Shown one piece after another: positions 3,104 to 18,261 of a DNA stretch of 33,623 nt. Below the pieces are notes generated by a model. The model saw only the letters and a program-made list of their open reading frames with translations, ran no database searches and was not told where the DNA came from. The stretch lies in the IMG/VR virus record IMGVR_UViG_3300035698_011402. One strand, 5' to 3'. The translations under genes and the position numbers were made by a program. How positions within the stretch are numbered: position 1 is the stretch's first letter; each line of letters starts with the position of its first letter. The stretch is from a virus.

Positions 3104-3180
3104 CCGCCGGTAGCTCAGTTGGTAGTAGCATCTGACTTTTAATCAGAGGGTCGTGGGTTCGATCCCCACCCGACGGACCA
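3104..3180 (+). tRNA. tRNA-Lys(UUU)
   Basis: Cloverleaf by hand: acceptor CCGCCGG/CCGACGG (one C-A mismatch), D-arm TAGCTCAGTTGGTAGTAGC, anticodon stem TCTGA/TCAGA with loop CTTTTAA (U33, anticodon TTT, A37), T-arm GTGGG-TTCGATC-CCCAC, encoded CCA. Confidence 0.8.
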
Positions 3181-3316: not shown

Positions 3317-3393
3317 GCATCAGTAGCTCAATTGGTTAGAGCCCCTGCTTGCCAAGCAGGAGATTGAGAGTTCGAGTCTCTTCTGATGCTCCA
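3317..3393 (+). tRNA. tRNA-Gly(GCC)
   Basis: Acceptor GCATCAG/CTGATGC + U + CCA; D-arm TAGCTCAATTGGTTAGAGC; anticodon stem CCTGC/GCAGG loop TTGCCAA (anticodon GCC); T-arm AGAG-TTCGAGT-CTCT. Confidence 0.85.
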
Positions 3394-4663: not shown

Positions 4664-4740
4664 GGGCCTTTAGCTCAGTTGGTTAGAGCACTGGACTCAT
4701 AATCCATGCGTCGGGGGTTCGAGTCCCTCAAGGCCCACCA
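4664..4740 (+). tRNA. tRNA-Met(CAU) (elongator/initiator/Ile-lysidine not distinguished)
   Basis: Acceptor GGGCCTT/AAGGCCC + A + CCA; D-arm TAGCTCAGTTGGTTAGAGC; anticodon stem CTGGA/TCCAT loop CTCATAA (anticodon CAT); T-arm CGGGG-TTCGAGT-CCCTC. Confidence 0.85.
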
Positions 4741-6322: not shown

Positions 6323-6369
6323 AGATGACCTTATGGCACTTCAGCGATTAGGCAAACGAGGAGTAACTA

Positions 6370-6840
6370 ATGTATATTAAAGATGGTGAAGCATCAGATT
6401 ATGGTCAACCTTTTGAGCATGCATATGCTTGGGGATGGTTGGGAAAGAAAGTCGAATCTCACGGATGGGACTCAACTTTAGAGAAAAAGGTTGTGATTTC
6501 TGTTCTTAATAAAATAGATCAAGAATTCCATTGTGGGCGTACTAGAGGATGTCACAGCTGTGAAATTTGCGGTGAGGCTATGGGGAATGCTGAGATTAAG
6601 ATATCTCATAATGGCAAAATATTTACGTGTCCAAGTCAAGTAGTTCATTACATAGAAGCTCATGACTATTGTCCTCCTGAAGAAGTTCGTGATGCGTTGG
6701 CAGAAGGAGTTCTTCTAAAAGACGAGGACATGATGCCTAATTGGGATTTGAAATTGGATGATGAAGCATTTATAGTAGCTAGAGACAAGAAGCTAAAAGA
6801 AGTTTTGGCAGATGGAATGACAAAACCTAGGAGATTCTAA
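6370..6840 (+). CDS. hypothetical Cys/His-rich protein
   Basis: ORF, HCGRTRGCHSCEICGE...HYIEAHDYCPPEE. Confidence 0.55.
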   Translation: MYIKDGEASDYGQPFEHAYAWGWLGKKVESHGWDSTLEKKVVISVLNKIDQEFHCGRTRGCHSCEICGEAMGNAEIKISHNGKIFTCPSQVVHYIEAHDYCPPEEVRDALAEGVLLKDEDMMPNWDLKLDDEAFIVARDKKLKEVLADGMTKPRRF

Positions 6841-7224
6841 ATGCCATTAGAAATACAATGGAAAACGTGGGAAGAGCAGGGCGAGCTAAAGCGTGAAATA
6901 AAAGGTTGGATCGATACAGGTAATAATCGAAAAGATTTAGTTGACACCATCTCCAGTGAAAACCCTGAAAAATGGACTAGAAAAGAGATTCATCAAGCAA
7001 TTACCGAGCTTAAGAAAGATTTACTTATCTCTCATTGCGGTGGAGACTATTTTAAAGTCACAGAATGGGCTTGTGACGCACTTCATCATGCTACAGGATG
7101 TAAGTCCTACCGTAAAGCCTTAGAGCGTCTAAGGGATGCTAGAGTCTATCATAAAGACATGGAGTCTTACGGTATTCTTAGAACCGAAGAAGAAACGGCT
7201 AAAATCAAAGCAGACCGAGCCTAG
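6841..7224 (+). CDS. hypothetical protein
   Basis: ORF begins at the ATG that overlaps the previous gene's TAA (TAAATG junction); 20-bp junction sequence repeated at both ends. Confidence 0.55.
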   Translation: MPLEIQWKTWEEQGELKREIKGWIDTGNNRKDLVDTISSENPEKWTRKEIHQAITELKKDLLISHCGGDYFKVTEWACDALHHATGCKSYRKALERLRDARVYHKDMESYGILRTEEETAKIKADRA

Positions 7225-7234
7225 GAGATTCTAA

Positions 7235-7432
7235 ATGCCTGAAGATAAATGCGGAATGAAATGGACACGACAATATGACATCAACTCAGGTCATATTGAA
7301 TACGAACCATCTACTCTGTGCGGAGAGGACACCTGCATGGACGAATGTTATAAATATTGGACATTCTGTCCTTATTGCGGAAAGGCTTTTGATTATAAAT
7401 ACCCCAGTGAACCAATACATGAACTAACATAG
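7235..7432 (+). CDS. small Cys-rich protein
   Basis: ORF with multiple Cys pairs. Confidence 0.45.
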   Translation: MPEDKCGMKWTRQYDINSGHIEYEPSTLCGEDTCMDECYKYWTFCPYCGKAFDYKYPSEPIHELT

Positions 7433-7442
7433 GAGAACTGCC

Positions 7443-7706
7443 ATGCGAAAAACTAAGATTACTATGGACGGAACAAATTACATTCACTGCATCCATGAGA
7501 AGTTGACTACAAATAAACATTTTGAGTTTCAGTGGGGCAGATTTGACGAGGATGATAATCAGATTTTCGCTACTGAATGTAGGTGGACAACAAAGATGGA
7601 CCATGCGGGACTAGAGATCCATATGGAACTTTTGAGATGGCATGTAAGACTAGCTATATACGATTGTCGTCACTGGGACGATGACAATGATTGTTACGAT
7701 TGTTAA
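7443..7706 (+). CDS. hypothetical protein
   Basis: ORF, 4-nt overlap-style packing. Confidence 0.5.
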   Translation: MRKTKITMDGTNYIHCIHEKLTTNKHFEFQWGRFDEDDNQIFATECRWTTKMDHAGLEIHMELLRWHVRLAIYDCRHWDDDNDCYDC

Positions 7707-7767: not shown

Positions 7768-7962
7768 ATGAAGACCGTAGCACTTGAAGATATATATGTC
7801 TCAACTATTTTGACATTTTGCGAGAATGCAGCCGAACTTGGATGCCCTCGGGACAAAGACGTTGATATGTGGTTCAGGGAACTCTCTCTCGAAGATGCCA
7901 GAAAAGTGGCTCAAAAAATGTTTGACATTGAAGAAAGACAAAGTAATGAATTACAATCCTAA
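7768..7962 (+). CDS. hypothetical protein
   Basis: ORF with CAAGGAGAAATACAATG RBS. Confidence 0.55.
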   Translation: MKTVALEDIYVSTILTFCENAAELGCPRDKDVDMWFRELSLEDARKVAQKMFDIEERQSNELQS

Positions 7963-8656
7963 AACAATATCAGTTGGTGAACATTTTGAGGACTGTCGCT
8001 ATCATCCATGTCTTTGCGTATGGGTTGATCCTGACGACTATACTCACATCAAGGGCAAGTCATTAGTCAACATGAGTGAAGGGTGTTGTTCTATTGGTCA
8101 TTGTGGTATCGTCGCATTTACTAAAGAAGAGGCTTTAGACGCCCAGCGTCAGTGTAATGATATTGGTTTCGATGAATATGTAAACAAAAGAGAAAAAGAA
8201 GAAAATATCGCTCGAAGCGATGCGACCCTGACAATCATGGTAGGATTGCCTAGGTCAGGTAAAACCACATGGATTAAAGAAAACCTAGAAGACAACATTG
8301 TTGTAAGTAACGATTGGATTCGGGAAAACATTCTTCAAGCTCCGTACAGTGATGCAATCAAACCTACAATATGGATGATTACTGATGCGACTATCAGAAT
8401 ACTTTTATCTCAGGGTAAAAATGTTATACTTGATGGCACTAATGTAAATCCTTTTGAGAGGAAGTTCTTTGTTGAGCTGGCTCGGTCATGCCATGCCGCC
8501 ATTCGCATTGTTCACATAACAACCTCTTTAGAGGTTTGTCTACAGAGAAATAAAACTCCTGAAGGGCATAAGCTTCATGGAGATTACTTGATGGGTGTGG
8601 CTAGTAGATTCGTTCTTCCAAAAACACACGAATATGATTCTTTAATTTGTATCTAA
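7946..8656 (+). CDS. polynucleotide 5'-kinase (T4 Pnk kinase-domain-like P-loop protein) with Cys-rich N-terminal domain
   Basis: Walker A GLPRSGKTTW, then ...VVSNDWIRENI...VILDGTNVNPFERKFFVELA...RIVHITTSLEVCLQRNKT, matching the T4 Pnk kinase domain order (GCPGSGKSTW...NINRDDYRQ...ISDTNLNPERR...); start uncertain (7826 or 7946). Confidence 0.65.
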   Translation: MNYNPKTISVGEHFEDCRYHPCLCVWVDPDDYTHIKGKSLVNMSEGCCSIGHCGIVAFTKEEALDAQRQCNDIGFDEYVNKREKEENIARSDATLTIMVGLPRSGKTTWIKENLEDNIVVSNDWIRENILQAPYSDAIKPTIWMITDATIRILLSQGKNVILDGTNVNPFERKFFVELARSCHAAIRIVHITTSLEVCLQRNKTPEGHKLHGDYLMGVASRFVLPKTHEYDSLICI

Positions 8657-10513: not shown

Positions 10514-10873
10514 TTGGATGATAGTAAGATGAAACCACTAAAAGTAACTTACGTTAACGGCATGGTATGTATAGACAATGATGATATTGCATTTGGGTGG
10601 ATACCCAATATGTATACAGAAAATAGATCGGGTATTGCTTTACAAATAAATCCAAACATCAACGAACCTGCTTGTGAGAAAATGTGTGCAAAAATTGCCG
10701 AAGCAGTAACAGAATTCAATACACACGACGAAGAAAAACTGTTAAAATTAGCCAAAGCCTACGAAGACGCTCAAGAAAACGACCATTGCCTCATTAGCAA
10801 ACATGAGTGTGAAGGTATGAGTCCATATGAAATAGCGAACTTAATTATACGAGAAATATACGAGGAACAATAA
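10514..10873 (+). CDS. hypothetical protein
   Basis: ORF. Confidence 0.5.
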   Translation: MDDSKMKPLKVTYVNGMVCIDNDDIAFGWIPNMYTENRSGIALQINPNINEPACEKMCAKIAEAVTEFNTHDEEKLLKLAKAYEDAQENDHCLISKHECEGMSPYEIANLIIREIYEEQ

Positions 10874-11688
10874 TGGAAGCATTATGGGCAATACAACAGA
10901 ATATCATGCGTCCCGAACGCTACTTTGCAGTACTTAATGCATGTAAGTACATGGATATACCTCACACAGTATTTAGAGCCTATCCTGACGAACCATCAGA
11001 ACTCGCCAAAAAAGGCTATAGTGAACTTCCCGGTTTTACATACGAAGGACCAACTGTCTTTTGTTCGACCACCTTTGTTGTTCGTAGAGTCCATGAAAGC
11101 GGGTTGTGGAAACCCGGCGTCTATTTTGATGCTGACAACTTCACGGTTAAAGCCTACAGAAAGAATTATGGACCTAACTTCTTAAATGGTGGAGGAGAGA
11201 TAACAACATTGGGAGAGTTTATTGCATCCGACAGAGACCCCGAAGACAAGTTTTTTATTCGTCCTGTCAAAGACCTAAAAGAATTCACAGGTCTTGTCGT
11301 ACAATTTAAAGAGATGCTTGAGTGGGACCCTGCTTCAGACTCAAGAGACTATGCTACTCCTAAAACTGAGATTATTGTAAGCGAACCCGCAGAAATTAAA
11401 AAAGAGTGGAGAGTCGTATTTGTAGATGGCAAGTATTGCAGCGGGAGCAAATATATTGAAAACCACAAACTTTGCGTAGACAGAAATGTAGATGACGTAG
11501 TTAAGACTTATGCTCAAGACATGGCTGATATGTGGTGTCCTGCCCCCGTTTTCGTAATGGACATTTGTCAGCTTGACAATGAAACCTATAAGGTATTAGA
11601 ATGTAACTGCTTTAATTGTTCGGGATACTATGCAGCAGACATCCCCAAAATAGTCAAAACCGTTACTGAGTTTGCATCTCAAGAATAG
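10873..11688 (+). CDS. putative ATP-grasp-like domain protein
   Basis: C-terminal ...WRVVFVDGKYCSG...PVFVMDICQLDNETYKVLECNCFNCSGYY resembles an ATP-grasp C-terminal subdomain (E/N metal ligands); assignment is tentative. Confidence 0.4.
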   Translation: MEALWAIQQNIMRPERYFAVLNACKYMDIPHTVFRAYPDEPSELAKKGYSELPGFTYEGPTVFCSTTFVVRRVHESGLWKPGVYFDADNFTVKAYRKNYGPNFLNGGGEITTLGEFIASDRDPEDKFFIRPVKDLKEFTGLVVQFKEMLEWDPASDSRDYATPKTEIIVSEPAEIKKEWRVVFVDGKYCSGSKYIENHKLCVDRNVDDVVKTYAQDMADMWCPAPVFVMDICQLDNETYKVLECNCFNCSGYYAADIPKIVKTVTEFASQE

Positions 11689-11694
11689 GCACTT

Positions 11695-12354
11695 ATGAGT
11701 TGGTATAGTAAACACAGAAACGCAGGAAAAACAGACAGAGACACAAAAGATTTCGTAACTCTCTATCATGTATCACCTAATAAAATATCCCGTTTTTCTG
11801 CACTCTCTCGGTTTGCAGGTAAAAGTGGAGTCTTTTTATCCCCATCCTATAGATCTGCCATTCGGGATTGGGCACCATACGTTCAAAACAAAAAACAAAA
11901 AAACCATACTCTTCAACATCAATGGTCGGCGTTATATGATAAACTCTATAAACTTGAAGACAAACTCGATAAAACCCCCGAAGATGAAGCTCAAATAACT
12001 CATTTAACTGAGAAACAAGAGCGTTTACAAGAAACGTTAAATAATGACGAATATACACGCTCTATACAAGGCTACAAGACGGTATATATGCATAAGGTTA
12101 GTTGTCCCAAGGATATTAACGAAGCCTCTAAAAAGCTATTAACGGACGAATTTGACCGTCAAGACAAAAACGGGTTGATCGATAGTAATATGGGGTTCTG
12201 GATGTGGGGAGAACAAATATTCGTTCCTGAGGAATATCTCTCAGATTTAAAAGTAATTTCTACTCGTGAATTGAGTGTTGGAGATATCCGTCAAGAAGAT
12301 TCTGATTTAAGATGTCGTAATAGACGAGCGGATAATCCGCCTAAACCCGCCTAA
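11695..12354 (+). CDS. hypothetical protein
   Basis: ORF; in frame with upstream gene across its TAG stop (6-nt gap). Confidence 0.5.
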   Translation: MSWYSKHRNAGKTDRDTKDFVTLYHVSPNKISRFSALSRFAGKSGVFLSPSYRSAIRDWAPYVQNKKQKNHTLQHQWSALYDKLYKLEDKLDKTPEDEAQITHLTEKQERLQETLNNDEYTRSIQGYKTVYMHKVSCPKDINEASKKLLTDEFDRQDKNGLIDSNMGFWMWGEQIFVPEEYLSDLKVISTRELSVGDIRQEDSDLRCRNRRADNPPKPA

Positions 12355-12905: not shown

Positions 12906-13286
12906 ATGAAGATTATAGTTATGGTTGCAGACTTAAAGAAAAGATGCCAAGAAGTCATCGCTAATGTAGAAGATGCTCAGAAATATGAGGACGACGCAGC
13001 ACTAGATAAAGAAACAGCTACTCGTTCTACTCGAAGATCTTTTTGGATGTTTGGAAGTAAAGTCCATGTGGAAGTCGATAGAGAAGCTTTACGCAAAGAA
13101 ATGATAAAAGCTTGCAGTTCTGATGGTTGGTGGAATTTTCCCGGTTTTCCTAGTCACATTGGCAATAAATGTAAAACTCAGGCTCAAGCAATCTTAGCGG
13201 CTTTAGAAGGACATCAACTAGATACGATAGAGCTAAGTCATCATGATATAAAATTATTCTCAGCATGGACTCAAAGCGAGCACTAA
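12906..13286 (+). CDS. hypothetical protein
   Basis: ORF with GAAAGGAAAACAATG RBS. Confidence 0.55.
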   Translation: MKIIVMVADLKKRCQEVIANVEDAQKYEDDAALDKETATRSTRRSFWMFGSKVHVEVDREALRKEMIKACSSDGWWNFPGFPSHIGNKCKTQAQAILAALEGHQLDTIELSHHDIKLFSAWTQSEH

Positions 13287-13291
13287 ATAAC

Positions 13292-13882
13292 ATGGGTGAA
13301 AAATACAATATCATCTATGCAGCTCCTCCTTGGCTCGAACGAGGGGCAGGAAAAGTAAAGCGTGGTGCTGATCGTCATTATCCATTGATGAAGACTGCTG
13401 ATATTTGTGAACTACCCGTTTCTGAACTCGCTGACGAAAATGCTCATTTATATATGTGGGTTACAAATAACTTTTTACCTGATGGACTTAAGGTTATTGA
13501 CGCATGGGGTTTTCGCTACATTACCATGATAACATGGGTGAAAGACAAAATGGGATTGGGGCAATACTTCCGAGGAAAAACAGAGCATTGTATGTTTGCC
13601 GTAAAAGGGATGTTGCCATACAAGCTTAATGATAGTGGTGGGCGTTGCCAATTCCCTACTGTATTCTTCTCTCGTAGAGAGCGTCATTCATCAAAGCCCG
13701 AACAGATGAGAGAAATTATAGAACTTGTTAGTGGGAAACCCGACAGAAAGAAAATAGAGTTATTTGGTCGTTCTAAGTCTCGTGGATGGGACATATGGGG
13801 CAATCAAACAGAAAGAGCAGACGTTGGTATGTTTGCGGATATGAAAGAACCACACGTTCAGGAGATTCCTAATGCCATGTAG
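13292..13882 (+). CDS. MT-A70 family N6-adenine methyltransferase (DNA MTase-like)
   Basis: IIYAAPPW (DPPW-type catalytic motif) near the N-terminus and HSSKPEQMREIIE near the C-terminus, typical of MT-A70/Dam-like methyltransferases; start chosen at ATG 13292 after the upstream stop. Confidence 0.7.
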   Translation: MGEKYNIIYAAPPWLERGAGKVKRGADRHYPLMKTADICELPVSELADENAHLYMWVTNNFLPDGLKVIDAWGFRYITMITWVKDKMGLGQYFRGKTEHCMFAVKGMLPYKLNDSGGRCQFPTVFFSRRERHSSKPEQMREIIELVSGKPDRKKIELFGRSKSRGWDIWGNQTERADVGMFADMKEPHVQEIPNAM

Positions 13883-14490: not shown

Positions 14491-14507
14491 AAAAGGAATA
14501 AGCTAAT

Positions 14508-14981
14508 ATGACAGATAAAGAAAGAAAGATGTGGAACGACAAATGCGACAAAGAACGGGCAATGGACTTGCTGCTGTTATTGTCTTTTCAAAAAAACATC
14601 AAATATGACTATCCGATTCCCGCAGACTATCATGTTGAAAATCGGATAAGAGCATGGCTTCAACAACCTAAAGTCAAAAAGAAATTCCCTAAGGCTATAC
14701 GTGAACGTGTCGCCGAATCTGTGCATGAAACATATGATGATTACAGTTCTATAAGATATGCTCTCGGAAACAACGATATGTTTGGTCATGAGTGGTTTTT
14801 TGGAATAGCAAACCTCTATAGATGGAGAGAGGGCGAAGCCGAAAAAGCCTTTGAAAATTCGTATAAATGGTTGAGTACAATTGAAAAGAAGTGGATTAAA
14901 AAGGTTCAGTTTGATCTTTGTTTGAAATGGGATGAACTGGATCATCCGCCTAAATTAGATTCCATTATGGAAAAATTCTAA
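14508..14981 (+). CDS. hypothetical protein
   Basis: ORF with AAAAGGAATAAGCTAATATG RBS. Confidence 0.5.
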   Translation: MTDKERKMWNDKCDKERAMDLLLLLSFQKNIKYDYPIPADYHVENRIRAWLQQPKVKKKFPKAIRERVAESVHETYDDYSSIRYALGNNDMFGHEWFFGIANLYRWREGEAEKAFENSYKWLSTIEKKWIKKVQFDLCLKWDELDHPPKLDSIMEKF

Positions 14982-15286
14982 TGAGCTTATGGCATAGAAG
15001 TTTTAGGTCTCATACTGGTGGAACAGGCGATAGCATTCACATTGGAAAATTTTTAATCGAAAGACATAGTAGAACTCCTATATGCTCTTGTAGCTATTGT
15101 AAGGAAGGTAATATTATGCCGAGATTCGTTCTGCCAGAATGCCGGGAATGGAATGCATGGAGAAGCATACGATGGTCTTCGTTTAACTATAACTACATGA
15201 CACGATGGACACTCTATAGGAATAAGTTGTTTGTTACTTTTGTAAAATTCTTTGAAGCTATATTTTTGGAAAGGTACAGTTCATGA
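14981..15286 (+). CDS. questionable ORF (odd composition); a shorter gene from ATG 15116 with AAGGAAGG RBS is possible
   Basis: Track ORF, R/W/C-rich; internal RBS+ATG. Confidence 0.3.
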   Translation: MSLWHRSFRSHTGGTGDSIHIGKFLIERHSRTPICSCSYCKEGNIMPRFVLPECREWNAWRSIRWSSFNYNYMTRWTLYRNKLFVTFVKFFEAIFLERYSS

Positions 15287-15437
15287 AAAAGAAACTCGAA
15301 GGATTTTCATTGACAAAGTTCCGTTCAATAAATTAGGATACTATTTGAAGGACGAAATCAAGGACGAAGAAATCTGATGGACTTTTTAATTGGGGTATTT
15401 TGCGGTATGGCTATAGGAATCACTGTGGGGATATTTC

Positions 15438-15710
15438 TTGATTCGTGGATTCAGGGAAGAAAGAAAAATGAAAATCAAAAAACAAATGCTTAAAACGGGA
15501 CGACCACCTGTAATTTGGAATAATGGGTCAGTCAACATTGTATTAGCTCGACATTCTAGTAAGATATACGCAGAAGACGGAGATAATGCATATATCCCGA
15601 GATGGACAGTAACGAACACCAAGTACTACAATGCCAATCCTAATACTTTTGAAGGGTGGATTGAGCTAGAGGATATGGAAATTCCAGAATGGGTGAAAAT
15701 ACCGATATGA
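15438..15710 (+). CDS. hypothetical protein
   Basis: ORF. Confidence 0.45.
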   Translation: MIRGFREERKMKIKKQMLKTGRPPVIWNNGSVNIVLARHSSKIYAEDGDNAYIPRWTVTNTKYYNANPNTFEGWIELEDMEIPEWVKIPI

Positions 15711-15802
15711 ATAAACAAGTAATTGTAATGCGAAAAGATCTTGGCATGCGTAAGGGTAAAATGTGTGCTCAAGTTGATGAAGGATTTTTGCTCGATTCTT
15801 AA
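15707..15802 (+). pseudogene. 5' remnant of a PTH2-type peptidyl-tRNA hydrolase gene (31 codons)
   Basis: MNKQVIVMRKDLGMRKGKMCAQVDEGF matches the canonical PTH2 N-terminus (VVVVRTDLKMGKGKIAAQ); its first 18 nt are 16/18 identical to the start of the intact PTH2 gene at 16612; separated from it by an HNH gene. Confidence 0.55.
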
Positions 15803-15832
15803 GAATATAATTCATAACTTAAAAGGAGTGTT

Positions 15833-16612
15833 ATGAATTATAAAAGACAATATGAAAATTTAATAGAGAGCAGAAGAGGACGGATAAAAGACGACAAGGA
15901 ATTATATGAAAAGCATCATATAATTCCAAAATGCTTGGGAGGAACAGACAAATCTAAAAATATAGTCCGTTTAACATTCAGAGAACATTTTTTGGCACAT
16001 AAATTACTTGTGAATATTTCAGAGGGTGTAGACAAAATGAAGATGTCCTATGCATTATTTAGAATGTGTAGACCAAACAATAGCTTCCAATTATATAGAA
16101 AAATAAGCAGTAAAAAATATGACAGAATAAAAAAGGCAACTCATGCCTCAATTAGTGGGGAAAACGCATCTTTTTATGGCAGAAGACATACCGAAGAAGC
16201 GAAACTGAAGGTGTCGATTTCACAAACTGGTGAAAACAATTCAATGTATGGTAAAAAAGCTTGGAATAATGGCTTGACAAAAGAAACTTCTGACAAGGTT
16301 AAAAAGCTAGCCGAAGAGCATTCTAGAAAATGGAATAATGGAGAGATTGACACATCCAATATCGGATATAAGACAGACGAAGGCAGATTGGCGATTTCAA
16401 ATGCTCAAAAGGGGAAAGCAAAATCAGAAGAAACAAAGAGAAAAATATCGAATACTTTAAAAGGCAGGAAGCAATCAAAAGAATCGGTGGAAAGAAGGAT
16501 ATCTCTATTAAGGGGTAAAAAGCAAAAGACAGTAACCTGTCCCCATTGTGGAAATAGTGGTGGAACAGCAATGTACAGATGGCATTTTGATAATTGTAGG
16601 GAGATAAAATAG
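15833..16612 (+). CDS. HNH homing endonuclease with NUMOD3-like repeats
   Basis: HHIIPKCLGG...LTFREHFLAH HNH motif; repeated EN(A/N)S(F/M)YG(R/K) and TKRKISNTLKGRKQS DNA-binding repeats; AAAGGAG RBS. Confidence 0.75.
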   Translation: MNYKRQYENLIESRRGRIKDDKELYEKHHIIPKCLGGTDKSKNIVRLTFREHFLAHKLLVNISEGVDKMKMSYALFRMCRPNNSFQLYRKISSKKYDRIKKATHASISGENASFYGRRHTEEAKLKVSISQTGENNSMYGKKAWNNGLTKETSDKVKKLAEEHSRKWNNGEIDTSNIGYKTDEGRLAISNAQKGKAKSEETKRKISNTLKGRKQSKESVERRISLLRGKKQKTVTCPHCGNSGGTAMYRWHFDNCREIK

Positions 16613-17070
16613 TGGAAACAAAACAAGTAATCGTAATTAGAACTAAATACCCTCATCCCACGAAAGAGGGGGAATTCTTAAAACCAAGATCCGTAAAACT
16701 CATAGCCCAAGGGGCACATGCCTCCATGAAGGTGTTCTTTGACATGATGGAACATAGTTATGGATTACATACGGGTAAGAATGGCGGACAATATGAGTAT
16801 CGTTTAAGACTTCCCGAAGGGGAACTCGGTGACGCCATGAACGCATGGATGAATGATGAATTATTTACAAAAATAGTTGTATCGGTTAAATCCGAGGAAG
16901 AGCTATTAGACATTGTCGCTCAAGCAGAGAAACAAGGATTGCCATGTGCTTTGATTATTGATGCAGGAAAAACAGAATTTGATGGAGTTCCTACAAAAAC
17001 ATGTTGTGCTATTGGACCATGCAATGCAGAGCAAATTGACAAAATAACAGGGGAATTACCACTATTATGA
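16612..17070 (+). CDS. peptidyl-tRNA hydrolase, PTH2 family
   Basis: GTG start overlapping HNH stop (TAGTG); KQVIVIRTK...KLIAQGAHAS...IVVSVKSEEELLDIVAQAEKQGLPCALIIDAGKTEF...CCAIGPCNAEQIDKITGELPLL matches the PTH2 consensus over its whole length. Confidence 0.75.
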   Translation: METKQVIVIRTKYPHPTKEGEFLKPRSVKLIAQGAHASMKVFFDMMEHSYGLHTGKNGGQYEYRLRLPEGELGDAMNAWMNDELFTKIVVSVKSEEELLDIVAQAEKQGLPCALIIDAGKTEFDGVPTKTCCAIGPCNAEQIDKITGELPLL

Positions 17071-17543
17071 TAGTATGCAGATCTAACGAACCAATACTTG
17101 ATGTGTTGCATTTAGCCAAGACAACACATAGCATATTTTTAGCAGGACCAACACCAAGAGATGATAATGCCGATTCTTGGAGAATAGACGCCCTAAAGAT
17201 TCTTGACGAACTTAAATACGACGGAGCGGTATTCATACCAACACCTTTTGGAGAAGACTATTCGCAACAGGTTAATTGGGAAAAATGTGGGTTGGAATAT
17301 TCTTCCGTAATTTGTTTTTGGGTTCCAAGAATCAAATGGTCTATGCCGGGTCTTACCACAAACGTTGAATTTGGTCGCTATATAGAAAGCGGAAGAGTAT
17401 TGTATGGAAGACCTGACGACGCAGACGCGACAAGATATTTAGACTGGATGTACACAGACGTTACTGTTAGAATTCCTCATGATGATTTAGAGGTTCTACT
17501 AAGACAAGCAATTAGTTTCAATGAAAGTTCAATAGCTGTATAA
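17067..17543 (+). CDS. nucleoside 2-deoxyribosyltransferase-like protein
   Basis: SIFLAGP near the N-terminus and TTNVEFGRYIESG (conserved Glu) are typical of the NDT/Rcl fold. Confidence 0.5.
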   Translation: MIVCRSNEPILDVLHLAKTTHSIFLAGPTPRDDNADSWRIDALKILDELKYDGAVFIPTPFGEDYSQQVNWEKCGLEYSSVICFWVPRIKWSMPGLTTNVEFGRYIESGRVLYGRPDDADATRYLDWMYTDVTVRIPHDDLEVLLRQAISFNESSIAV

Positions 17544-17544
17544 T

Positions 17545-18195
17545 ATGATCATGAGATGGAAAGAAATAACTGAAGATAGCAGAAGTGCTATTTGGGAATC
17601 GAGCGAAGTTGATGGTGTAGTTTACGAGATACTTCCTAATCAATTCCATGAGTGGTCCGACCCTAACGGATTTATGTTACTCCGTATAGGGAGCGAACTG
17701 ACTATGGATGAGGGCTATCTCGGAATGGTCAACGATGAAGTTGGTATCTGTTGTGGAATTGGAATGGCTTGTGCTATGGGTCTTCCTGAACCATGCATAA
17801 ATCAAAAAGTGTCGGAACTTAAAAAATGGGCATTTACAGACAGACTGAATCTCAAGAACGGACTTCACAACATGTTTGTCGGAAAGTTATTTAGAAAAAC
17901 TCCATCCATAAGAGTACAAGAGTTGTTTGAAGAATATCCAGACAACCTAAAGGCTGATGGATTTGATGACTGTATTGTTGGCATCTGTACTCGTTTTGGT
18001 AGTGTAGACGTATTTGCATACGATAAAAACAAAATGCTTGAAAAACTCATGTCGGATGGCATGGGGACATACGAAGAAGCGGTTGAATATTTTGATTTCA
18101 ACATTGCGGGTGCTTGGGTTGGAGAAACCACGCCAGCTTACATCGAGGTAATAAATAAAATTCATGGAAAAAGAGTACGACATAAAAGAAGATGA
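17545..18195 (+). CDS. hypothetical protein
   Basis: 216-aa ORF. Confidence 0.55.
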   Translation: MIMRWKEITEDSRSAIWESSEVDGVVYEILPNQFHEWSDPNGFMLLRIGSELTMDEGYLGMVNDEVGICCGIGMACAMGLPEPCINQKVSELKKWAFTDRLNLKNGLHNMFVGKLFRKTPSIRVQELFEEYPDNLKADGFDDCIVGICTRFGSVDVFAYDKNKMLEKLMSDGMGTYEEAVEYFDFNIAGAWVGETTPAYIEVINKIHGKRVRHKRR

Positions 18196-18261
18196 ACTCA
18201 TCTCGCACTATCGCCCGTTCCACAAAATCACAGAAATGGAAGCAAACGGAGTTATTGCCAC

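Follow-up and report, generated by a model that had tools for sequence, protein, structure and literature searches.

The locus examined here raises the question of how a phage PTH2 gene came to have two 5' ends, one on either side of an endonuclease gene. It lies within a 33,623-nt stretch of viral DNA (IMG/VR virus record IMGVR_UViG_3300035698_011402), which in its entirety is referred to as the window, and all of the features of the locus are encoded on the given (+) strand. The likely answer is that a free-standing HNH/NUMOD3 nuclease invaded PTH2 after codon 22 (GCT CAA/G, 15772/15773, the slash marking the junction) and brought a foreign 5' end with it. This spare 5' end of 33 codons was probably derived from a different PTH2 lineage and joined in frame, with a complete chimeric PTH2 still being encoded. 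The first 22 codons of the resident gene were most likely stranded upstream, where they now form part of a dead-end open reading frame (ORF) of 31 codons. The incoming DNA would amount to ~938 nt (15773-16710) and would comprise a short leader, the nuclease gene and the spare PTH2 5' end.

The anatomy of the locus can be followed from left to right. A resident ORF of 90 aa (15438-15710), which has no family match in Pfam or PHROGs, ends in a TGA stop that overlaps the ATG of the 31-codon ORF (ATGA); this overlap suggests that the start codon of the latter stands in what would be its native context. The 31-codon ORF itself (15707-15802) encodes MNKQVIVMRKDLGMRKGKMCAQVDEGFLLDS followed by a stop. 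Its PTH2-like character, proposed in the initial annotation, is supported by a Pfam PTH2 match of 28.3 bits (E 2.2e-6) against a gathering cut-off of 23 bits, confined to profile positions 2-22, and by a custom PTH2 hidden Markov model (E 7e-7). The PTH2-like portion consists of codons 1-22, MNKQVIVMRKDLGMRKGKMCAQ (15707-15772), and is referred to as the stub; it is of a short N-terminal type and its last codon is the conserved Gln codon CAA. The left end of the inserted DNA (15773-15832) contributes nine codons unrelated to PTH2 (VDEGFLLDS), a TAA stop, and a 30-nt spacer that contains a TATAAT box (15806-15811) and the ribosome-binding site AAGGAG (15823-15828). A promoter and terminator scan of the locus gave no signal better than that of shuffled sequences. 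The gene of the free-standing HNH/NUMOD3 homing endonuclease is intact (15833-16612, 259 aa), with a Cys/His cluster near its C-terminus.

The nuclease gene is followed by a full PTH2 gene (16612-17070, 152 aa; Pfam PF01981, 89.4 bits, profile positions 2-115 of 115). It may be considered in terms of a foreign replacement 5' end of a long N-terminal type (codons 1-33, 16612-16710) and a resident body (codons 34-152 and stop, 16711-17070), the stop of which overlaps the ATG of the next gene. That downstream resident neighbor (17067-17543) encodes a nucleoside 2-deoxyribosyltransferase-like protein (Pfam PF15891, E 4e-9). As had been noted from the sequence initially, the TAG stop of the nuclease overlaps the GTG start of PTH2 (TAGTG), with one base common to both. 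Read-through of this TAG would add five residues only, without fusion to PTH2. The nuclease gene does lie between the stub and PTH2, although it does not separate them exactly, as had been stated, since the 30-nt spacer follows the TAA of the stub ORF. The non-coding part of the insert is limited to 60 nt. Both PTH2 pieces end or begin at GCY CAA G and, as a result, the ends of the insert can be placed only to within a few bases. No second copy of either the nuclease gene or PTH2 was found within the window.

The relationship between the two 5' ends is central to the question. They had been reported to agree at 16 of their first 18 nt; in register the agreement is 9/18, and the real match is one of 16/17 nt at an offset of one codon (15713-15729 against 16621-16637), which is the sole DNA identity in an alignment of the two ends. 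In this AT-rich genome, the stretch encodes the conserved KQVIV motif, a strand, and its stub copy aligns at least as well with the PTH2 genes of unrelated contigs (26/29 nt in L010 and 22/23 nt in L098; loci and contigs are denoted by L and protein homologs by P). The 16/17 identity is thus uninformative with regard to a recent duplication.

A survey of PTH2 N-termini places the two ends in different subfamilies. More than 1,800 PTH2 relatives were found in a large protein collection, the closest at 58% identity to the window protein, and their N-termini fall into discrete length types between a conserved Arg and the GK motif. A short canonical type (KQVIVMRKDLxMRKGKMIAQGAHAS) accounts for 65 of 121 sequences (a total in which the window is counted), and two types are of intermediate length. 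A long type, with a loop of 15 residues (KYPxPxxxGxF), is found in 10 of 120 homologs and in the window. The stub is of the short type and is 90% identical over 20 residues to the N-terminus of P0002/L181. The N-terminus of the intact gene is of the long type, with P0001 and P0008 as its closest relatives (~78% identity to P0001); the loop reads KYPHPTKEGEF in the window, KYPHPTEEGEF in P0001 and KYPHPTKEGEM in P0008. The initial annotation had correctly described the intact copy as having KYPHPTKEGEFLKPRS where the stub has DLGMRKGKM. It had also regarded the KYPHPT segment as a diverged form of the stub sequence, which cannot be upheld as this N-terminus is standard in a separate PTH2 lineage (P0001, P0008 and others). 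The same holds for its proposal of a target duplication or divergence of a local copy, given that the two 5' ends belong to different PTH2 subfamilies.

In three other loci with two 5' ends (L097, L017 and L009), the stub and the intact 5' end are of the same subtype, yet their DNA identity is only 59-71% and 62-68% of the codons for identical residues differ. With this extent of divergence, the copies are heterologous rather than recent repeats. It would be expected that only diverged copies persist, since recombination between direct repeats that are almost identical would remove the nuclease gene.

The body of the window PTH2 does not share the ancestry of its N-terminus. Over residues 46-84 there are 20-21 matches in 38 positions to the short-type proteins P0002 and P0004, and 4-7 in 38 to long-type proteins. 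In a neighbor-joining tree of residues 37-152, the window protein groups with P0004, P0002 and P0006 in a 25-tip clade of which all other members are short-type, and the ten other long-type proteins form a clade of their own with the window protein outside. The nearest clade of the window protein was without a long-type member in 39 of 40 bootstraps. The 22 codons of the stub, when joined to codon 34 onward of the intact gene, give a gapless canonical PTH2 of 141 aa, for which the best match is P0002 (178 bits, 63% identity); the real protein scores 161 bits against P0001 and 157 bits (55%) against P0002. With a long-type N-terminus on a short-type body, the intact PTH2 is a chimera: a foreign 5' end is fused in frame to a resident core, and the phylogenies of N-terminus and body are discordant. 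The right-hand crossover is located somewhere between codons 26 and ~46. A separate protein, P0073, has a short-type N-terminus on a body that sits inside an otherwise long-type clade and may be the reciprocal kind of chimera.

PTH2 residues R26, K29, Q33 and D117 are present in the intact copy. Two other positions depart from the family: V28 in the GK motif (codon 28, 16693-16695), situated 15 nt to the left of the junction, takes the place of a Gly that is kept in 119 of 120 homologs, and D82 (codon 82, 16855-16857) that of a Gly kept in 91% of homologs. These substitutions could be an immunity change toward the nuclease or a sign of reduced hydrolase function.

The 259-aa nuclease is assigned to a homing-type family. 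NUMOD3 is matched in three stretches (E 2.4e-15, 56.6 bits against a cut-off of 20.4 bits) and the phrog_655 profile, labeled homing endonuclease, is matched with an E of 1.3e-52; the Pfam HNH_5 (E 4e-4) and HNH (E 0.02) matches are under the gathering score. The catalytic HNH motif (paired His, Asn, His) is YEKHHIIPKCLGGTDKSKNIVRLTFREHFLAH. Homologs of the nuclease range from 247 to 266 aa and reach 56% identity. Across 32 homologs, H28, H29, H52 and H56 are invariant, N43 is nearly so, and the C236/C239/H251/C255 cluster is invariant; all 22 invariant columns are kept in the window nuclease. The best match in the deposited phage collection is at 35% identity, and the matches there are annotated as HNH homing or mobile endonucleases of T4-like and other phages. 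Solved structures yielded only a marginal match of the HNH motif to Cas8f-HNH fusions (E ~0.09). The early description of a homing-type HNH gene in or beside PTH2 is supported.

This nuclease lineage is tied to the 5' ends of PTH2 genes. In each of the 13 contexts with a homolog of at least ~40% identity, that homolog adjoins a PTH2 5' end. Ten of the contexts are co-directional, with the nuclease upstream of PTH2 (the window, L009, L186, L187, L188, L097, L017, L010-14, L015-16 and L098), and in all of these the PTH2 start overlaps the stop of the nuclease or is almost contiguous with it; the other three are divergent from the PTH2 start (L018, L019 and L099). The genes that surround the pair differ between loci. 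Some 154 more distant nuclease homologs in metagenome and viral contigs had no PTH2 within the fetched flanks, and none of 51 distant HNH relatives in bacterial and archaeal genomes was found beside PTH2. Conversely, PTH2 loci that were fetched independently of the nuclease (L001-L008, L177-L182 and L185) contained no such nuclease, and the contexts of the P0001, P0002 and P0004 genes are nuclease-free. From the contexts compared, this distribution is what would be anticipated for a selfish endonuclease that specializes in a single target gene. As a separate observation, the IMG/VR contig L008 carries a short-type PTH2 followed downstream by two unrelated ORFs with HNH motifs (6364-7089 and 7111-7614), and PTH2 neighborhoods may attract more than one endonuclease lineage.

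A PTH2 5' remnant is found upstream of the nuclease in seven of the ten co-directional loci and every one ends at the same Gln codon (CAA/G), which is that of the (A/S)Q motif. The same scar is therefore present in at least six uncultured phage contigs other than the window. The remnants read ...KGKMCAQ/VDEGFLLDS(stop) in the window, ...GKEIAQ/GDRGICIS(stop) in L009, ...GKMVAQ/LKDI(stop) in L097, ...GKMVSQ/DTLC(stop) in L017, MR(stop)GKEFSQ/ in L186, MR(stop)GKEVSQ/ in L187 and MHKGKIIAQ/EQ(stop) in L188. With a position-weight matrix trained on intact genes, an empirical p<0.001 was obtained for four of the six remnants outside of the window, with p values of 0.008 for L186 and 0.05 for L017. 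The whole 5' end is kept in four remnants and ~27-28 nt in three; those of L186 and L187 are of ~28 nt with an in-frame TGA common to both. L009 and L186 have ~76% identity from the nuclease gene across PTH2 to the downstream gene, as well as an upstream block of 84 nt in common (90% identical), with a difference in the length of surviving stub. After the junction there is a tail of 60-61 nt that is similar in sequence in the window, L009 and L186; at the protein level, VDEGFLL of the window tail aligns with GDRGICI of the L009 tail. The short ORF might have been an independent conserved gene; instead, its relatives are PTH2 remnants in several stages of decay.

One further sequence may be noted beside these scars. 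The PTH2 homolog P0010 (JGI, 2.8-kb contig) contains a tandem duplication of 13 residues, KIRTGKLISQACH occurring twice, that spans exactly the AQ/xxH junction at which stubs linked to the nuclease terminate, and this repeat could be the scar of a repair event there.

Other histories would also leave two PTH2 5' ends around a nuclease gene. The stub and the nuclease gene may have moved as a unit to a position upstream of an untouched native PTH2, in which case it is the stub that would be foreign. The ability of a stub to be inherited with the nuclease is evident in L186 and L187, where the same 28-nt stub with its TGA stands in different upstream contexts, and the window, L009 and L186 have apparently homologous tails beyond the junction. 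However, the window's intact PTH2 is chimeric, with its long-type N-terminus and short-type body; moreover, the type of the stub is the type of the body, and the stub ATG overlaps the stop of the upstream resident ORF. This history is judged unlikely. Two 5' ends in direct orientation around the nuclease, and the 16/17-nt stretch they have in common, would also be accounted for by a PTH2 5' end that was duplicated locally in tandem, or as a target site at insertion, and then diverged in situ. Such a history is contradicted by the data and very improbable given that the 10-residue difference in length between the ends defines separate and widespread subfamilies, that the common stretch is equally similar to unrelated phages, that synonymous divergence between the two copies is near saturation in other loci, and that the phylogenies of body and N-terminus conflict.

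The adjacency in 13 of 13 contexts, together with the tight coupling of stop and start in co-directional loci, might instead point to an HNH protein that has been domesticated as a PTH2 partner in a conserved two-gene operon, with the stubs as rearrangement debris. Most PTH2 genes, however, are without the nuclease; the nuclease occurs in both orientations relative to PTH2 and among unrelated surrounding genes, the insertion scars fall at one fixed codon, and the family's members in T4-like phages are known and annotated as homing endonucleases. A domesticated partner is thus quite unlikely. Since the stub and body read as one canonical PTH2, the stub could also be considered as exon 1 of a gene interrupted by a self-splicing intron or intein that houses the nuclease gene. 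This is the least credible of the alternatives, and hardly tenable: apart from 60 non-coding nt, the insert is made up of the nuclease ORF and a second complete PTH2 N-terminus, and the nuclease ORF is equipped with a start, a stop and a ribosome-binding site of its own. A group I intron was rejected as no ribozyme structure was found by Rfam at E<=10 over 15000-17600, where no Rfam match of any kind was obtained. An intein was rejected as the nuclease is a separate ORF and the Pfam matches include neither an intein domain nor the Hint splicing domains.

Several points weigh against an invasion of PTH2 by the nuclease with replacement of the 5' end. No closely related nuclease-free genome was found and, as a result, the empty site is reconstructed rather than observed: a megablast of 14500-18200 against 50,697 phage records gave no match, the window's downstream neighbor matched no viral contig when used as a query, and the neighboring genes of the window had no match in any fetched locus. 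The best homolog of the downstream gene (62%) directly follows a PTH2 3' end in L189, a 735-nt contig that holds the 3' end of PTH2 only; a second homolog, P0243, has no PTH2 beside it. Relatives of L097 that were sought by means of its nicotinate phosphoribosyltransferase gene include a nuclease-free PTH2 in L185, which is not isogenic. Stub remnants were not significant in L010, L098, L018, L019 and L099, and that of L015 was marginal (p=0.02). Since L186 and L187 share a decayed stub in different surroundings, stubs can travel with the element; the window's stub could be partly donor-derived, and the loci could owe their common junction to a single ancestral event instead of to the position of cleavage. 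The body trees rest on ~113 columns, and in no more than 18 of 40 bootstraps was the nearest clade of the window protein all short-type. N-terminal type is in accord with the body for 84 of 119 nearest neighbors across the family, an imperfect agreement which implies that some recombination occurs without a visible nuclease. Finally, the G28V substitution might mean that the PTH2 is impaired.

If the nuclease did invade PTH2 in this manner, the following sequence of events may be proposed. The enzyme would cut or nick nuclease-free PTH2 alleles in or near the stretch that encodes GK..AQ/GAHA; with the pattern GGN AAR ... GCN CAR/GGN GCN CAY GC, this is the most conserved DNA in the PTH2 gene. 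The right-hand end of the break would recombine within the conserved stretch encoding AQGAHASMK, which fits the crossover between codons 26 and ~46 in the window. Repair synthesis from a nuclease-carrying genome would then copy the donor PTH2 5' end and the nuclease gene. The left-hand end would be resolved either illegitimately at the break or by homology with a stub that already exists in the donor, and homology of this kind would explain both the shared junction and the 60-nt tail of the window, L009 and L186. With a stub present, PTH2 sequence flanks the nuclease on both sides and the element could home into any phage that bears PTH2, irrespective of its neighboring genes.

The foreign 5' end may plausibly render the allele immune to the nuclease. 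Since the chimeric allele recreates the junction, protection of the element from its own nuclease would depend on cassette-side differences. The window has many differences from the stub within the 15 nt that lie left of the junction, V28 included. Furthermore, GKQ occurs left of the junction in 4 of 13 nuclease-linked intact copies, in 0 of 12 nuclease-free loci and in ~5 of 120 homologs. The G28V and GKQ substitutions are hints of putative immunity changes in the recognition site. A more tentative proposal, which at present falls somewhat short of an even chance, is that the whole unit is a self-contained homing cassette that replaces gene ends, in which the HNH gene is translationally coupled to a spare 5' end, the stub acts as a left homology arm, and the element is portable between unrelated phages with PTH2. 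If true, the cassette would let a free-standing endonuclease live inside coding sequence without an intron or intein, and would be the 5'-end phage counterpart of elements in fungal mitochondria.

The fungal elements, mitochondrial mORFs, carry a foreign gene C-terminus that becomes fused to the resident core, with the native C-terminus left downstream (PMC3630166). The first case was atp6 of Allomyces macrogynus; others are atp6, atp9, cox2 and nad3 of Glomus sp., atp9 of Rhizopus and cox2 of Mortierella (PMC3630166). Endonuclease activity of the Allomyces element is reported as shown, and the duplicate ends of Glomus atp6 have ~63% nucleotide identity (PMC3630166); related partial duplications are described in PMC7487136. 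As in the phage locus, a free-standing endonuclease ORF is located inside a conserved gene without an intron or intein, a foreign gene end makes an in-frame hybrid and the displaced native end persists alongside. In both systems the duplicates are alike in protein and diverged in DNA (~63% identity for Glomus atp6, 59-71% for L097, L017 and L009). Unlike the mORFs, which act at the 3' end, the phage element replaces a 5' end that has its own start codon, coupled to the nuclease stop. The phage nuclease is of the HNH/NUMOD3 family whereas those of the fungal mORFs are LAGLIDADG or GIY-YIG; the setting is a huge phage with PTH2 as the target, rather than a mitochondrion.

Among phages, intronless homing by free-standing endonucleases is represented by SegF, SegG and MobE of T4. 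The resemblance lies in a nuclease gene beside its target, with a presumed cut of nuclease-free alleles and repair accompanied by co-conversion of flanking DNA. The HNH family is common to Mob proteins and the PTH2-linked nuclease, for which the best matches in cultured phages are at ~35% identity. To our knowledge, the T4 seg and mob genes are intergenic and no fragment of a displaced gene accompanies them; in the PTH2 locus a coding sequence is interrupted by the insertion, and the gene is made whole by a spare 5' end. Closer in this regard are nrdA/mobE of the Aeromonas phage Aeh1 and gp43 of T4-related phages, genes split by the insertion of a homing endonuclease, and the mobA-gene 60 cassette of T4, in which the host gene is rescued by ribosomal bypassing. 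Here too a free-standing endonuclease is found inside a conserved phage gene and extra sequence provides tolerance. The nrdA and gp43 genes, however, are split into two functional halves, and the PTH2 case has one complete gene and a decaying upstream remnant. We know of no duplicated gene end left by the Seg/Mob elements, Aeh1 nrdA, gp43 or mobA-gene 60. Lexical searches of the literature, which were not exhaustive, returned no endonuclease that targets PTH2 and no element that replaces 5' ends in phages. The locus is thus apparently an undescribed phage version of a known strategy and not a new principle.

A replacement gene end adds a third route, beside introns and inteins, by which a nuclease may be accommodated in phage coding sequence. 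A whole nuclease clade dedicated to one target also offers the GK..AQ/GAHA stretch as a precise candidate recognition site, and the locus is a concrete case in which genetic exchange in huge phages has its boundaries marked by nuclease genes. The N-terminus and body of a phage PTH2 gene can differ in history, and such mosaics are of importance for phylogeny.

There are consequences for annotation as well: the 31-codon ORF is a remnant, and PTH2 starts that overlap the nuclease are easily miscalled. In L188 (1984-2394), the gene caller missed the true ATG (MSVKQVIV...), where PTH2 overlaps the nuclease gene's final 11 nt. Many PTH2 homologs are recorded from MRKDL, without the KQVIV strand (among them P0006, P0011, P0032, P0033, P0041, P0055, P0076, P0101 and P0104), and some of the short PTH2 proteins in databases are probably miscalled starts. 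In L177 and L097, PTH2 is located a few genes downstream of a nicotinate phosphoribosyltransferase gene, and L177 also has an isochorismatase-family gene.

With respect to the phage itself, an 839-aa ORF (28754-31273) encodes a vault repeat as well as a major-vault-protein shoulder domain (E 2.4e-27). In the deposited phages it is matched solely by LR756500, LR756501 and LR756503, uncultured huge phages of 462-735 kb, at 43-45% identity. Judging by these matches, the window is from a relative of uncultured huge phages of ~460-735 kb. A transfer-messenger RNA (tmRNA) with the tag peptide ADTALPMAA is encoded at 25836-26196, in a 1.7-kb gap free of ORFs. ARAGORN identified four ordinary tRNAs (Gly, Lys, Gly and Met; 338-411, 3104-3180, 3317-3393 and 4664-4740). 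Together, the tmRNA, PTH2 and the tRNAs are a set of translation-rescue genes.

A further tRNA at 31330-31403 has the anticodon CTA, which reads TAG, and is labeled Pyl by ARAGORN. The recoding of TAG that this tRNA brings to mind was rejected, since TAG is the normal stop of 10 of the 46 long ORFs in the window. One of these stops is distinctive: the TAG of an R2K ATP-grasp ORF (10873-11688) is in frame with the next ORF (11695-12354) and read-through would add at least 200 residues, compared to a gain of at most 10 residues for every other TAG-terminated ORF in the window. With a CTA tRNA nearby, this TAG could be a suppressed stop or a coincidence. Also upstream of the PTH2 locus are genes for a protein with an AAA_33 kinase-like domain (7826-8656) and an MT-A70-family methyltransferase (13265-13882, E 2.6e-26).

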